Below, one piece after another: positions 1 through 5,815 of a DNA stretch of 6,069 nt. Position numbers and translations under genes: made by a program. Position 1 is the stretch's first letter; each line of letters opens with the position of its first letter. The DNA comes from a virus. Its lineage: Duplodnaviria; Heunggongvirae; Uroviricota; Caudoviricetes. The notes under the pieces were generated by a model. It was not told the DNA's origin. It worked only from the letters and a program-made list of their open reading frames with translations, and ran no database searches. The stretch lies in IMG/VR virus record IMGVR_UViG_2713896896_000013. One strand, written 5' to 3'.

Positions 1-1428
1 GTGAAATTATTCAGATTCTCTAAAGTAAAAATTGCAGAGCTGCCAACGCCGGAGCATGGACAGGCCGAATATGGTGATACGGAGGTTAACGGGCTGCGTG
101 TCCGTGTGGGTTCGTCTGGTGTGAAAAGTTTCTGCATTTCCCGTAAGCGTAACGGAAAATTTATTCGTGCAACGCTGGGGCGTTTTCCTGATCTGAGCGT
201 GGATAATGCCAGGGCGAAAGCAATGGAACTTCTCGGAGAAGTCGCCACAACGGGGATAAATCCGAACATAGCGAAGCGCACGAACAACAAGGCCATGATA
301 ACGCTGAATGAGGCACTTGAAGCCTACATAAAAAATCGTGGCCACCGCCTGAAACCCGCCACAGAAAAACAGTACCGCAGCATATTACAGAATTATTCCG
401 GTGACTGGATGGTGCATACCCTCGCCAGTATTACCCGCGAACGTGTGGAACAGCGGCATAAGGCCGTTACCGACGGGGCTGTATGGTTCGGTGCTGATAA
501 AACCACGTTACGGGCTGGGGTTGGTACAGGAAGCAAGGCACAGGCCGATTTATGGGCGCGTGCGCTGCGTGCTGTGTGTCGGTTTGCGCATGATCATTAC
601 CGTGATGATGCGGGTAATACTCTTTTACCGGATCCGCCGACGCTTGTACTGAGCACAAAACGGCAGTGGCACGGAACGGTAAGAAAAACGGAACGTATCC
701 GCCTGCATGATTTTCCCCGCTGGTTTGCTGCTGTAGCTGCTGTACGCGACCAGGGCGAACAGGAAAGGGATGATATAGCGGTGACGGTATGTGATGCCGT
801 GGAAATGGCGCTTTTTACCGGACTGAGGAAATCAGAAATTTTTGGCCTTACGTGGGATCGCGTGAATATGGGCGGTCGTTTTTTCTGGATAGACACCACG
901 AAAAACGGGGATCCGCTCGAATTACCGATTACTGATACGTTGCGGGAAATGTTCCACCGTCGACTGAAAATAAAAAACGCTGATGATGTTCTGGTGTTTC
1001 CTGGTGTGAAGGGCGTTATCCAGGAGACACGGCACATCATAGACCGGATAAGCGCGGCTACTGTTCCTGAGTCGAACGATGAAATGCTCTCCCCTGTACC
1101 ATTCAAATGGCACGATGCGCGCCGGACGTTCGGGACGGTTGCCGAACTGGTGGGCGTGGGTAATTACATCCTCAAGCGCCTGATGAATCACCGTACTATG
1201 CGAAGTGCCGACGTAACGCAGGGATATTTACATTTTGGTGCTGATGAACTGCTGGAGCCAGCGTCACGGATAGAACGGGCAATTCTGGAACATGCCGGGC
1301 TGGTGGAGAGTAAAAAATCTATCGATGCGCAATTGCTTTCCGCACTGGAGAGTATGAGTGACAGTGAGAAACGCGCATTACTATTTAGTATCGTTAATTC
1401 AAATGGTGGTTTGAATGTCAGAAAATAA
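1..1428 (+). CDS. int: Tyrosine-type site-specific integrase (phage integrase family, P4-like)
   Basis: 475-aa ORF starting at GTG at window position 1, so the upstream RBS is not visible and the N-terminus may be slightly incomplete. The N-terminal region resembles an integrase arm-binding domain (GLRVRVGSSGVKSFCISRKRNGKF...). The C-terminal half carries the tyrosine recombinase catalytic signature in order: R in LFTGLRKSE, H-x-x-R in WHDARRTFGT, catalytic Y in VTQGYLHF. Stop TAA at 1426-1428. A hand count of one stretch (61-120) gives 35/60 G+C. Confidence 0.9.
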   Translation: MKLFRFSKVKIAELPTPEHGQAEYGDTEVNGLRVRVGSSGVKSFCISRKRNGKFIRATLGRFPDLSVDNARAKAMELLGEVATTGINPNIAKRTNNKAMITLNEALEAYIKNRGHRLKPATEKQYRSILQNYSGDWMVHTLASITRERVEQRHKAVTDGAVWFGADKTTLRAGVGTGSKAQADLWARALRAVCRFAHDHYRDDAGNTLLPDPPTLVLSTKRQWHGTVRKTERIRLHDFPRWFAAVAAVRDQGEQERDDIAVTVCDAVEMALFTGLRKSEIFGLTWDRVNMGGRFFWIDTTKNGDPLELPITDTLREMFHRRLKIKNADDVLVFPGVKGVIQETRHIIDRISAATVPESNDEMLSPVPFKWHDARRTFGTVAELVGVGNYILKRLMNHRTMRSADVTQGYLHFGADELLEPASRIERAILEHAGLVESKKSIDAQLLSALESMSDSEKRALLFSIVNSNGGLNVRK

Positions 1429-2448: not shown

Positions 2449-2482
2449 CATAAAACAAAGGCGACCCGGATCAGAGGTCGCC
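2449..2482 (-). terminator. Rho-independent terminator-like hairpin, functional on the minus strand
   Basis: Perfect 7-bp GC-rich stem GGCGACC (2460-2466) / GGTCGCC (2476-2482) with a 9-nt loop. Read on the minus strand it is followed by UUUGUUUUAU (complement of 2449-2459). On the + strand the hairpin is followed by agtggg, which is not U-rich. It lies about 90 nt downstream of the minus-strand gene at 2571-2750. Confidence 0.4.
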
Positions 2483-2570: not shown

Positions 2571-2750
2571 CTATTCCTGTTCTTTGGCCTTGCGGCGCTG
2601 GCGGCGTTTGATCTCGCCTTTTGCGGCAGTAACTAAAAAACCGGCTGTACTTTCGCCAGGTTCTTTAAGTTGCTCAATATCATCCATTACTTCATGTGGG
2701 ATTCTGACAGTTGTCATTTGTGATTTTGCGTTCTTTGCACCAGTTGCCAT
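2571..2750 (-). CDS. Small ribbon-helix-helix-like DNA-binding protein (59 aa), putative transcriptional regulator
   Basis: Minus-strand ATG at 2748-2750 preceded by a strong SD AGGAGA (complement of 2758-2763) with a 7-nt spacer; stop TAG (complement of 2571-2573). Product: MATGAKNAKSQMTTVRIPHEVMDDIEQLKEPGESTAGFLVTAAKGEIKRRQRRKAKEQE. The pattern is a short beta-strand (TVRIP), helix, loop, helix and a basic tail, as in CopG/Arc-type RHH proteins. The 114-aa version in the ORF track adds a non-protein-like N-terminus with no RBS. Confidence 0.5.
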   Translation of the reverse strand: MATGAKNAKSQMTTVRIPHEVMDDIEQLKEPGESTAGFLVTAAKGEIKRRQRRKAKEQE

Positions 2751-3456: not shown

Positions 3457-3756
3457 ATGAGAACATATTTATCTGGCTTGACTGCCAGCGGTTATGCACA
3501 CCCCAAAATTATCCCCGGCGCTATTTATCTGGATAAGAACGGTAACAGAGTAACGGTAAAAGAACTGATGTTTGATCGTGTTTATTTTATCCGTGATGGA
3601 TATTCATTTCTTAGTTCGCTGAACGTGGAGATCTTTATTTGCAGATTCCGGCGGGAAATCCCGACTTCCAGAAATAACCATGTGTCACGTGTGGATGTGG
3701 ATAAAAAACTACAGGAACTGAAAAACATGATTGCCGCGTGGAGAGAGCAGAAATGA
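3457..3756 (+). CDS. Hypothetical protein (99 aa)
   Basis: ATG at 3457 with an SD-like GGGGA about 10 nt upstream. Its stop TGA (3754-3756) overlaps the ATG of the replication gene (3753-3755) in an ATGA arrangement. No recognisable motif. Confidence 0.6.
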   Translation: MRTYLSGLTASGYAHPKIIPGAIYLDKNGNRVTVKELMFDRVYFIRDGYSFLSSLNVEIFICRFRREIPTSRNNHVSRVDVDKKLQELKNMIAAWREQK

Positions 3757-5570
3757 AAAAAGCGCCAAATTTAAAACACCAGCCGCGTGACAAAATGACG
3801 GAAGTCATCATTTTTGCGGGTAGTGATGCGTGGGCACATGCGAAACAGTGGCAGGAACAGGACGGGCGACTGGCTGGCGATAACGTCCCTCCTGTCTGGC
3901 TTGGAGAGCAACAACTTGCCGAACTGGACAACCTGCAAATCGTACCGGACGGACGCTATCGCGTGCGTCTCTATCAGGCGGGGTTATTGCGTCCGGGGCT
4001 TGTTAATACCATCGGGCAGAAACTGGCAGCGGCAGGTGTCAGGGATGCTGATTATTATCCTGAAGGAATGCACAGCCAGAAACGGGAGAACTGGCGCGAA
4101 TATCTGGAACGTGAGCGGGGAGAGCTGGCGGAAAAGAAAAAGGTAGTTGAACTGCCTGTAAAGAAAAAAGAGCGGGTAAAAGACGATAACGCTTCATCAC
4201 TGGCACTTAACCAGATGGGAGCAAGTCAACGCGGCGAAGTTCTCCTGGCACATTATGGCGGTGAACTGGCGATTCATGCTGACTCTGACACTGTTCACCA
4301 TTACAACGGCGTTGTATGGGAGCCAGTACAGGATAAAGAATTACAGCGAGCTATGGCACAGATTTTCATTGATGCGGAGATCAGCTATTCGCAGAACGCC
4401 ATTAAATCGGCGGTCGATACCATGAAGTTAAGTTTGCCTGTTATGGGGAATACAGCCCGTAACCTGATTGGATTCAGTAACGGGGTATTTGATACCAGAA
4501 CAGGTAATTTTCGGGAGCATAACAAAAACGACTGGTTGTTAATTGCCAGTGAATTACCTTTCAGCCCACCAGCAGAGGGGGAAACGCTGGCAACACATGC
4601 GCCGAATTTCTGGAAGTGGTTACGCCGTTCGGTGGCTGAGAATGACCGCAAGGCGGATCGCGTACTGGCTGCATTATTCATGGTGCTGGCGAACCGGTAC
4701 GACTGGCAGTTATTCATTGAGGTAACAGGTCCAGGGGGAAGTGGTAAAAGCGTGATGGCGGAGATTTGCACCATGCTGGCGGGTAAGGCCAACACAGTAT
4801 CGGCAAGCATGAAGGCGCTGGAAGATGCAAGGGAACGCGCGTTAGTGGTTGGCTTTTCGCTGATTATCATGCCGGATATGACCCGCTACGCTGGTGATGG
4901 GGCAGGAATTAAGGCCATTACAGGCGGTGACAAGGTGGCAATTGACCCAAAACACAAAGCCCCCTACTCAACGCGTATTCCGGCAGTAGTGCTGGCGGTT
5001 AACAATAACGCCATGTCATTCAGTGACCGCAGCGGGGGGATCTCACGTCGTCGGGTGATATTCAATTTTTCGGAAGTTGTACCGGAGAACGAACGCGATC
5101 CAATGCTGGCGGAAAAAATAGAAGGTGAGCTGGCGGTAGTGATTCGCCATCTGCTTACACGGTTTGCTGACCAGGACGAAGCCAGACGCCTGTTATATGA
5201 GCAGCAGAAATCTGAAGAAGCACTGGCGATAAAGCGAGAGGGGGATTCGCTGGTGGACTTCTGCGGCTATCTCATGGCGTCGGTAATGTGTGATGGCCTG
5301 TTAGTGGGTAATGCTGAAATTGTGCCATTCAGCCCACGCAGGTATCTCTATCATGCCTATCTGGCTTATATGAGGGCACATGGGTTTGGTAAACCTGTAA
5401 CACTGACGCGCTTCGGTAAAGATATGCCGGGGGCAATGGCGGAATATGGCAGGGAGTATATGAAACGGAAAACGAAGCACGGTTTGCGTTCAAACGTGAC
5501 ACTGACGGAGGAATCAGAAGACTGGATGCCATCATGTGTATCGGTCACTAATGACGATAGCAAAAATTAA
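3753..5570 (+). CDS. Replication initiator with D5_N-like region and SF3-type P-loop helicase domain (P4 alpha-like / PICI Pri-Rep-like primase-helicase family)
   Basis: 605-aa ORF from ATG 3753 (the track gives a GTG 5 codons upstream at 3738). Walker A motif GPGGSGKS in FIEVTGPGGSGKSVM; candidate Walker B hydrophobic run plus Asp in LVVGFSLIIMPDM. The segment IGFSNGVFDTRTGNFREHNKNDW resembles the D5_N motif that precedes SF3 helicase domains in P4-family primase C-terminal-domain proteins. It is immediately followed by an iteron array. Stop TAA at 5568-5570. Confidence 0.88.
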   Translation: MKKAPNLKHQPRDKMTEVIIFAGSDAWAHAKQWQEQDGRLAGDNVPPVWLGEQQLAELDNLQIVPDGRYRVRLYQAGLLRPGLVNTIGQKLAAAGVRDADYYPEGMHSQKRENWREYLERERGELAEKKKVVELPVKKKERVKDDNASSLALNQMGASQRGEVLLAHYGGELAIHADSDTVHHYNGVVWEPVQDKELQRAMAQIFIDAEISYSQNAIKSAVDTMKLSLPVMGNTARNLIGFSNGVFDTRTGNFREHNKNDWLLIASELPFSPPAEGETLATHAPNFWKWLRRSVAENDRKADRVLAALFMVLANRYDWQLFIEVTGPGGSGKSVMAEICTMLAGKANTVSASMKALEDARERALVVGFSLIIMPDMTRYAGDGAGIKAITGGDKVAIDPKHKAPYSTRIPAVVLAVNNNAMSFSDRSGGISRRRVIFNFSEVVPENERDPMLAEKIEGELAVVIRHLLTRFADQDEARRLLYEQQKSEEALAIKREGDSLVDFCGYLMASVMCDGLLVGNAEIVPFSPRRYLYHAYLAYMRAHGFGKPVTLTRFGKDMPGAMAEYGREYMKRKTKHGLRSNVTLTEESEDWMPSCVSVTNDDSKN

Positions 5571-5581
5571 ACTTATGGAAT

Positions 5582-5815
5582 AACTGTTCACCACTGTTCA
5601 CCCTGTCATAAATATCTTTTATATCAGTATATTATAGGGTGAACAGTTGTTTATGAACTGTTCACCAAACTATTCACTGTTCACCTTTTTGATTGTTTAT
5701 TGAGCTTCAAGGGTGAACAGTGGTGAACAGTTGGTGAATAGTTTTTGTGAAACTGTTCACCCCTTAACATTATGAATTAAAAGAGAAAATATCAAAAGGT
5801 GAACAGGTGAAGGGT
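5582..5815. repeat. Iteron array, candidate replication origin (9-mer GGTGAACAG / CTGTTCACC, both orientations)
   Basis: CTGTTCACC at 5584-5592, 5594-5602, 5658-5666, 5677-5685 and 5753-5761. GGTGAACAG at 5638-5646, 5712-5720, 5722-5730 and 5798-5806, plus a degenerate GGTGAATAG at 5733-5741 and partial copies (ctgtca 5603-5608, ctattcac 5670-5677, ggtgaaggg 5806-5814). Tandem copies are phased at 10-11 bp. AT-rich stretches at 5606-5637 and 5762-5797 could act as unwinding elements. The core octamer TGTTCACC is, as I recall, the alpha-protein binding iteron of the P4 ori and crr. Confidence 0.75.

Follow-up and report, generated by a model that had tools for sequence, protein, structure and literature searches.

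Comparative analysis of the AT-rich integrase end in a satellite-type island points to a native, conserved tail at the left edge of a probably exchangeable module

Gram-negative PICIs and P4-like satellites, such as EcCICFT073 and EcCIMP1, start with a leftmost, inward-directed P4-type integrase gene, followed by a gene for an AlpA-family HTH_17 regulator and by a D5_N/Pox_D5 primase-helicase gene with iterons behind it, and have an accessory slot between the integrase and regulator genes (PMC6092414, PMC10085698, PMC11773190). PICIs are recognised to carry accessory genes in this interval between integrase and regulator (PMC10085698), and the helper-phage switch-on of alpA in the Gram-negative PICI-type islands, with any repressor that might take part in it, was left open by Fillol-Salom et al. 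(2018; PMC6092414). The stretch of DNA analysed here (the window; 6,069 bases) shares this organisation and represents the left-hand portion of an integrative island of the satellite type. Relatives with 93–98% DNA identity to the window were found in 87 out of 5,426 complete genomes of Escherichia coli, all of them chromosomal. The main features of the window are listed below, with the gene between int and alpA designated gene X.

1–1428, + strand: int, P4-type tyrosine integrase of 475 aa, with an Arm-DNA-bind_3 N-terminal domain (residues 8–94) and a Phage_integrase catalytic domain
1415–2101, + strand: gene X, 228 aa, GC 0.34, from an uncharacterised conserved family
2243–2431, + strand: alpA, AlpA-family HTH_17 regulator (Pfam HTH_17, E 1.5e-12)
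between alpA and the primase-helicase gene: a small antisense ORF, an Icd-like ORF and a DUF4222 gene
3753–5570, + strand: primase-helicase, D5_N/DUF5906/Pox_D5
5582–5806, 3′ of the primase-helicase gene: about ten GGTGAACAG iterons

The window, which ends ca. 270 nt beyond the iterons, contains an integrase gene, the gene of an AlpA-type regulator, a primase/replicase gene and an adjacent origin, all co-directional. This layout fits that of the int-alpA-primase Gram-negative PICIs and P4-like satellites, and the island is best designated as satellite-type from its gene content, the 6-kb window having no packaging or capsid-redirection genes. It differs from the described PICIs in that the int-alpA slot is filled by one conserved, int-coupled family and not by arbitrary cargo. 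EcCIMP1_002, which occupies the int-alpA position of a published PICI, was considered as a relative of gene X and rejected, being a much smaller, apparently unrelated ORF. An Rfam scan of the window gave no match, and no complete tRNA was detected by ARAGORN in the sequences preceding int in the related loci L001, L002 and L029. Related IMG/VR contigs span 8–50 kb.

Both Pfam matches of the integrase are above the curated cutoffs (PF13356, E 2.5e-13; PF00589, E 1.3e-13), and the catalytic R-K-H-R-H-Y set is complete, with R276, K301, H371, R374, H397 and Y409 invariant in an alignment of 36 homologues. An initial annotation of the window had estimated that the protein continues for about 65 residues past the catalytic tyrosine, and we counted 66 (Y409 to residue 475). 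The elements of this region are as follows:

1225–1227, + strand: int codon of the catalytic Tyr409 (GYLHF)
1228–1425, + strand: extension of 66 residues past the catalytic tyrosine, with three helices in the AF2 model (residues 414–431, 438–450 and 454–467)
1336–1365, + strand: switch zone, codons 446–455, where both DNA and protein identity to alternative island alleles drops from ~95–98% to ~65%
1354–1392, + strand: conserved tail motif M-S-D-S-E-K-R-A-L-L-F-S-I, with K457 at 1369–1371, R458 at 1372–1374 and F462 at 1384–1386
1396–1428, + strand: variable, AT-rich final 10 int codons plus stop, apparently serving in addition for translation initiation of gene X

The AF2 model of the integrase has a global pLDDT of 55, with local values of 75–84 at residues 441–460, and was used for local secondary structure only; its predicted last helix (454–467) spans the tail motif, and residues 468–475 are predicted, with low confidence, to be disordered. 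Homology to the integrases of PHROG_1 stops at residue 437, and a profile search with int against PDB sequences did not yield any match. In tyrosine recombinases, helix N of Cre and the C-terminal strand of lambda Int are the C-terminal segments that follow the catalytic tyrosine. The extension described here is likewise a conserved element past the tyrosine that could mediate protomer contacts, although its 66 residues make it much longer than the corresponding segments of Cre and lambda Int, and it has no sequence-detectable relative of solved structure.

We fetched seven loci from E. coli and 18 from 12 other genera (integrases 59–80% identical). Nearly all of their integrases have 471–477 aa, with 62–67 residues past the tyrosine, and every one of them contains the tail motif near its end, with the consensus [ST][DE][DE]xKRxL[LI]F or, in a fuller form, [LM][ST][DE][DE]xKRx[LIM][LI]F. 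Conservation in an alignment of 121 sequences was 1.00 for K457, 0.98 for R458 and 1.00 for F462, comparable to that of the catalytic residues, and only 0.07–0.57 for residues 466–475, true variability beginning past residue ~465. Among the E. coli alleles (integrases of 473–475 aa), tail lengths vary by about two residues, and the motif codons differ synonymously, with R458 encoded by CGC, CGT or CGG, which marks an old divergence shaped by purifying selection. The initial annotation had named a tail shared with cargo-free islands as evidence against its own reading, and in substance this is what was observed: the motif is kept in integrases without an adjacent gene X, such as those from Xenorhabdus (L013 and L063–65, with alpA as the next gene), from Aeromonas (L018) and from locus L109. 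The AT-rich 3′ end of int is best described from these alignments as a native, conserved part of the integrase, and the gene itself as intact.

The composition of this tail differs sharply from that of the remainder of the gene, and here the sequence bears out both the earlier remark that the last int codons are AT-rich like the downstream gene and the placing of the compositional break inside int. The GC content is 0.333 at 1351–1428 versus 0.517 at 1–1350, and all 78-nt windows within 1–1350 stay at 0.41 or above, with a mean of 0.522 and an sd of 0.046 (z = −4.1 and binomial P = 8e-4 for the tail). A two-segment likelihood analysis situates the change point at 1376 (2-lnL range 1306–1385). 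At third codon positions the tail is close to gene X, with a GC3 of 0.28 and 0.29, respectively, as against 0.51 in the int body. This is a general trait, because the GC3 of the tail was lower than that of the body in 17 out of 17 and in 65 out of 65 related loci bearing gene X. Averaged over 52 non-redundant loci, GC3 goes down to 0.23–0.26 across the last ~20 int codons, similar to the start of gene X; this family-wide fall puts the break at around nt 1366–1383 of the window, in agreement with the change point. A preliminary idea from three controls (L013, L018 and L010), that the AT bias of the tail depends on an adjoining AT-rich gene, was contradicted by a scan of 77 loci, where a low-GC3 tail was present in 11 of the 12 loci without gene X, two of them lacking any adjacent gene. 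The AT-richness of the tail could be due to inheritance from ancestors that carried gene X, to a looser constraint on the protein while selection favours an open initiation region, or to a regional bias.

The DNA identity of the window to loci L001, L002 and L003 is 95–100% up to ~1340–1350 and then ~65%, with the first clusters of mismatches at 1341–1353. An alignment of homologues to find where identity drops had been suggested from the start, and it places the collapse at nt 1336–1365 (codons 446–455). At least eight tail types occur on int bodies that are 91–98% identical over their first 450 residues; all of them diverge at codons 446–455 and share only the motif (28–48% tail identity). 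For instance, over its first 440 residues the integrase of P0089 differs at six positions, and its last 30 residues contain 21 differences. Likewise, P0099 has a body 79% identical and a tail 80% identical to those of the window, and a gene X of the window type (54% identity, E 7e-88), with int and gene X again overlapping by 14 nt. The window-type tail was also found, with a 14-nt overlap, on other distant integrases (L026 and L040, 79% identical; L086, 61%), and the closest tail sequence belongs to L089 (integrase 61% identical), with an overlap of 11 nt. This combination of window-type tail and overlap with integrases 61–79% identical indicates that the overlap is old. Overall, the type of tail tracks the type of gene X and not the int body.

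On the right-hand side, the divergence ends at different places depending on the locus: at ~1830, the boundary between the N- and C-domains of gene X, in L001, at ~2250 in L002 and at ~2310, inside alpA, in L003; identity resumes at ~2250 in the comparison with L002 and at ~2310 in that with L003. We conclude from these comparisons that int is best understood as a mosaic whose tail forms the left-hand limit of an exchangeable module of old origin, that is, a probable recombination boundary and not the scar of a cargo insertion; the conserved flank on the right-hand side of this variable module is alpA. Homologous recombination between islands, with the conserved flanks serving as arms, would swap a unit made up of the int tail and gene X, either alone or together with the repeats that follow, the left junction falling in codons 446–455 (1336–1365) and the right one at ~1830, at ~2250 (start of alpA) or at ~2310 (inside alpA). 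Since, among E. coli-type islands, the int body and the sequences from alpA onward are 91–98% identical, and the module exists in at least eight deeply diverged alleles, homologous recombination would indeed be expected to swap the module. With a junction inside int, site-specificity, carried by the int body, and the module of tail and gene X would reassort independently. Overlapping coupled genes and mosaic boundaries are ordinary features of mobile elements; less ordinary are the situation of the boundary inside an integrase gene, the presence in the slot of one conserved, domain-shuffling family, and the type-specific repeats that accompany it.

The same break was previously explained by the insertion of an AT-rich foreign cargo gene into the end of int, with deletion of the native 3′ end and generation of a chimeric tail and of an accidental overlap of 14 nt. 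The position of the break inside int, the codon usage that the tail shares with gene X and the divergence of alternative alleles from nt ~1350 agree with this proposal. Nevertheless, we consider it extremely improbable, because all relatives have a homologous tail with K457, R458 and F462 conserved, those without gene X included; because the supposed cargo belongs to a conserved syntenic family present in more than 12 genera; and because the same tail type appears, with overlaps of 14 or 11 nt, next to integrases only 61–79% identical, meaning that the overlap is old. What remains of the chimeric tail is the mosaicism of int, with a junction at 1336–1365, which probably results from module exchange and not from a novel insertion. 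It could alternatively be argued that there is no true module boundary and that the low GC of the tail merely reflects a sequence rich in Lys, Asn, Ile and Phe. Amino acid content does explain ~40% of the drop (the GC expected for the amino acids of the tail is 0.447 with the codon usage of the int body, which itself has 0.517), but codon choice explains the other ~60%: GC3 falls from 0.51 to 0.28 and the GC observed in this comparison, 0.347, is that expected with the codon usage of gene X (0.347). Additionally, the drop in GC coincides with the collapse of DNA identity to the other alleles, and we give this alternative practically no credit. For annotation and typing, an AT-rich gene that overlaps the end of an integrase gene should not be automatically taken as cargo that truncated int.

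The ATG of gene X is at 1415–1417 and the stop codon of int ends at 1428, which confirms the 14-nt overlap recognised initially, and RefSeq annotates both CDSs in an E. coli locus 97.9% identical. The start codon is preceded by a Shine-Dalgarno (SD)-like sequence, GGTGG, at 1405–1409, inside int, and in the 16 loci examined SD-like purine blocks precede the ATG of gene X by 5–9 nt, those from other loci being GAGGTG, AAGGTG, AAGGA or GAGG. In 63 of the 65 loci that contain gene X, its start overlaps the stop codon of int or lies directly next to it; the length of the overlap differs by allele (1, 4, 8, 11 or 14 nt), the mode being 4 nt (ATGA, 27 loci), and the 14 nt of the window's allele group were recorded in nine loci. 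A scan for sigma-70-like promoters in the 3′ end of int (1200–1450) gave no candidates, and there was no terminator-like site between int and gene X. The RNA of the junction is not significantly structured (z = −0.75), so sequestration of the SD sequence is not indicated. The simplest reading of these data is that int and gene X form a co-transcribed operon with translational coupling, as we infer from the arrangement of the signals. The last ~10 residues of the integrase appear to be a dispensable end given over to the initiation region of gene X; in the Xenorhabdus loci that have an unrelated downstream gene, the int stop codon lies four residues beyond the phenylalanine of the motif. As in ATGA-type coupled pairs, both genes are on the same strand, with a start codon within or abutting the upstream stop codon and an embedded SD, and the arrangement is kept across genera. 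The pair differs from them in that the overlap length is allele-dependent and in that the end of int is apparently ceded to the initiation region.

Gene X has 86 word-indexed homologues across the Enterobacterales, and an exhaustive profile search raised the family to at least 150 clusters at 50% identity. Nearly all of the products have 180–280 aa, and it is their extreme C-terminal end that is conserved. Starting from int, a gene of this family was the next one in 14 of 16 intact genome loci, and gene X was present between int and alpA in 65 of 77 intact loci from IMG/VR. Starting from gene X, all three divergent members analysed were situated between the gene for an integrase of 468–481 aa and an HTH_17 gene, and the syntenic family spans more than 12 genera. 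None of its members has been named, and the literature consulted did not describe the family. Four gene X types did not receive any assignment from Pfam, PADLOC or PHROGs, nor did ten remote relatives from Pfam; the match to HTH_32 was weak (E 0.0013, below the Pfam cutoff), a Foldseek comparison of the gene X model with the PDB gave nothing significant (best E 2.5), and no enzymatic or effector domain is visible in the product. We consider that gene X is, in terms of distribution and synteny, a conserved, fast-evolving and unannotated putative core gene of these islands, and not idiosyncratic cargo. The architecture of its product and the sequences that follow the gene are these:

1415–1831, + strand: variable, helical N-domain of gene X, approximately residues 1–139
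1832–2098, + strand: conserved C-domain of gene X, approximately residues 140–228, with a winged-helix-like unit of three helices (H157–170, H176–190 and H197–206)
2101–2170, no strand assigned, directly 3′ of the gene X stop codon: operator-like array, AAWCCAG at 2101, 2121 and 2141 (20-nt phasing) and inverted at 2164–2170
2141–2150 and 2161–2170, within this array: palindrome AAACCAGATA / TATCTGGTTT

The sequence AAWCCAG occurs six times in the window, with 1.6 occurrences expected, and four of the six are within 70 nt. The half-sites are invariant in loci from Escherichia, Pectobacterium, Rouxiella and Salmonella, all with the same type of gene X C-domain, and the spacer varies both in sequence and in length. 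Loci with other C-domain types have different repeats in this place, consisting of three GCGCGTTnTGATC direct repeats, of CTGGCTAT/CCGGTTAT-like words, or of GGGGAGGGG/CCCCTCCCC palindromes, and repeat type follows the C-terminal type of gene X, with L014 as an exception. Locus L002 has the alpA allele of the window and different repeats, which indicates that repeat type goes with gene X rather than with AlpA. Also, the end of gene X in the hybrid locus L012 is of the C′ type (last ~35 residues), as are its repeats. Similarity over the last 40 aa of gene X correlated with the sharing of downstream 8-mers (Mantel rho 0.32, p ~5e-4), a value to be read with the repeat classes having been defined post hoc and with the physical linkage of protein end and sites, which could alone yield a correlation; for the N-domain, the correlation with downstream 8-mers was not significant (Mantel rho 0.09).

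The winged-helix-like C-domain and the repeats suggest that gene X codes for a putative DNA-binding protein. That the repeats are its cognate operators, situated upstream of alpA, is a tentative proposal to which we assign somewhat less than even chances; in it, the C-domain would recognise the type-specific phased repeats located 3′ of its own stop codon. In a more speculative extension, the module would act as a specificity cassette made up of a regulator and its operators, much like the immunity region of a phage. The immunity regions of lambdoid phages are mosaic, repressor and operators being exchanged together between conserved flanks; in the gene X module there are likewise a DNA-binding protein, here putative, and adjacent type-specific repeated or palindromic sites that vary together between near-identical flanks, and the breakpoints of the gene X module are, as in lambdoid phages, at gene or domain borders. 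In contrast to CI and Cro, to which it has no detectable relation, gene X has its winged-helix-like domain at the C-terminus, and the left boundary of the module is inside the integrase gene. A further resemblance is to the Stl master repressors of SaPIs, which are divergent sensors of proteins from helper phages: gene X, too, codes for a highly diverse protein beside int in which a variable part is combined with a conserved, putatively DNA-binding one (PMC6092414). However, stl is transcribed divergently from the regulated operon and its product has an N-terminal HTH, whereas gene X is read in the same direction as alpA and encodes a C-terminal HTH-like unit; neither did gene X show a sequence or fold match to the SaPI Stl. 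A specific model would be that int tail, gene X and repeats form an exchangeable cassette controlling alpA, the master activator gene of these Gram-negative islands, in which gene X, unrelated to Stl and coupled to int, would act as a repressor or sensor with an Stl-like function, its C-domain binding the type-specific operators and its N-domain sensing a protein from the helper phage; we view this detailed version as doubtful. In any case, a conserved, allelically diverse and putatively DNA-binding protein, encoded with its accompanying repeats directly upstream of alpA, constitutes a concrete candidate for satellite regulation.

Two other explanations address why the tail and gene X travel together. 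They could be co-adapted, with the tail helix contacting the gene X protein (e.g., as an integrase accessory or directionality factor) and both being exchanged as a unit. Tail type does follow gene X type rather than the int body, and coupled translation would produce Int and the gene X protein together. However, two Pectobacterium loci (L011 and L022) have near-identical tails and different gene X N-domains, inspection by eye across types did not reveal in the tail any residue pattern sorting by type of gene X C-domain, and the residues that differ among alleles are mostly in the last 10 positions, predicted to be disordered. Adjacency alone explains the linkage of tail and gene X, and we think co-adaptation very unlikely. 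Adjacency is also invoked if gene X is an accessory gene for anti-phage defence or host interaction, whose alleles are driven by an arms race while the int tail hitchhikes. This possibility, to which we give a low but appreciable probability, draws on the location of the gene in a recognised accessory position of PICIs (PMC10085698) and on its AT-richness, swappable N-domains and many alleles, together with the unrelated AT-rich gene found in this place in Xenorhabdus, although none of the four gene X types matched PADLOC, Pfam or PHROG entries and the product is devoid of visible enzymatic or effector domains. It is not exclusive of the explanation that we favour, and hold with good confidence as a whole, of a native integrase tail and a coupled gene X included in an exchangeable module, its regulatory part being speculative. 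Typical defence hotspots hold unrelated systems, but here the slot is occupied in 65 of 77 loci by members of a single family, which share a conserved C-domain; an unrelated gene was found there only in the Xenorhabdus loci.

The window carries several repeats and other features, and a tRNA-like sequence lies outside it in two E. coli loci, L001 and L002:

2101-2170, phased array of AAWCCAG with 20-nt spacing, directly 3′ of the stop codon of gene X (the ORF between int and alpA)
2204-2241, inverted repeat CGTATAC/GTATACG, just upstream of the alpA start
2460-2482, minus strand, terminator-like hairpin following the antisense ORF and directed toward alpA
2571-2750, minus strand, antisense ORF of 59 aa
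5582-5806, GGTGAACAG repeated about ten times, in direct and inverted orientation, in an AT-rich stretch immediately 3′ of the primase-helicase gene
L001 and L002, locus positions 1275-1500, upstream of int, tRNA-like sequence (3′ half)

The AAWCCAG array terminates in the palindrome AAACCAGATA/TATCTGGTTT; its half-sites are unchanged across four genera, and different repeats were found with other types of the gene X C-terminal domain. The inverted repeat preceding alpA occupies the same position in nine related loci (L003, L009, L011, L012, L015, L019, L022, L023 and L026), and in many relatives takes the form TATCACCGTTGTTAAC...ACACGGTGATA. Its CGGTGATA half resembles lambda-type operator half-sites, and the repeat could be the helper-responsive site or a site for autoregulation by AlpA. 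To the right of alpA, relatives of the antisense ORF bear the annotation YlcI/YnfO family or HicB-like, and the GC content dips to 0.30 at 2750-2850, probably marking a divergent promoter region. The GGTGAACAG stretch is probably the replication origin.

The integrases of L001 and L002 are 96 % identical and lie at two chromosomal sites, adjoining nfeF/yqjH and adjoining ypjC. From locus position 1275 the two have in common a stretch (complement of ...GGTTCAAGTCCAGCAGGGGCCACCA) that looks like a tRNA gene's 3′ half. ARAGORN found no complete tRNA upstream of int in either locus, in keeping with a partial duplicate at attL.

Variant organizations were also observed. In L006 (5415-6509, E. coli PEC41), a decayed or recombined variant, the C-terminal end of gene X is replaced by an IS1 fragment; the remainder of this island is also different, with a RepA-type helicase in place of the D5-type primase. 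Only in Xenorhabdus (L010, 4941-5642; L067; L072) is the gene X position clearly taken by a different gene: there int terminates right after the conserved motif and, following a 39-nt gap, the slot is held by an unrelated, very AT-rich gene (GC 0.29) of 233-235 aa. In the Salmonella relatives L030-L032, alpA is followed by a Phage_ASH (P4 epsilon-like) gene, which ties this island family to P4-like satellites as much as to PICIs.
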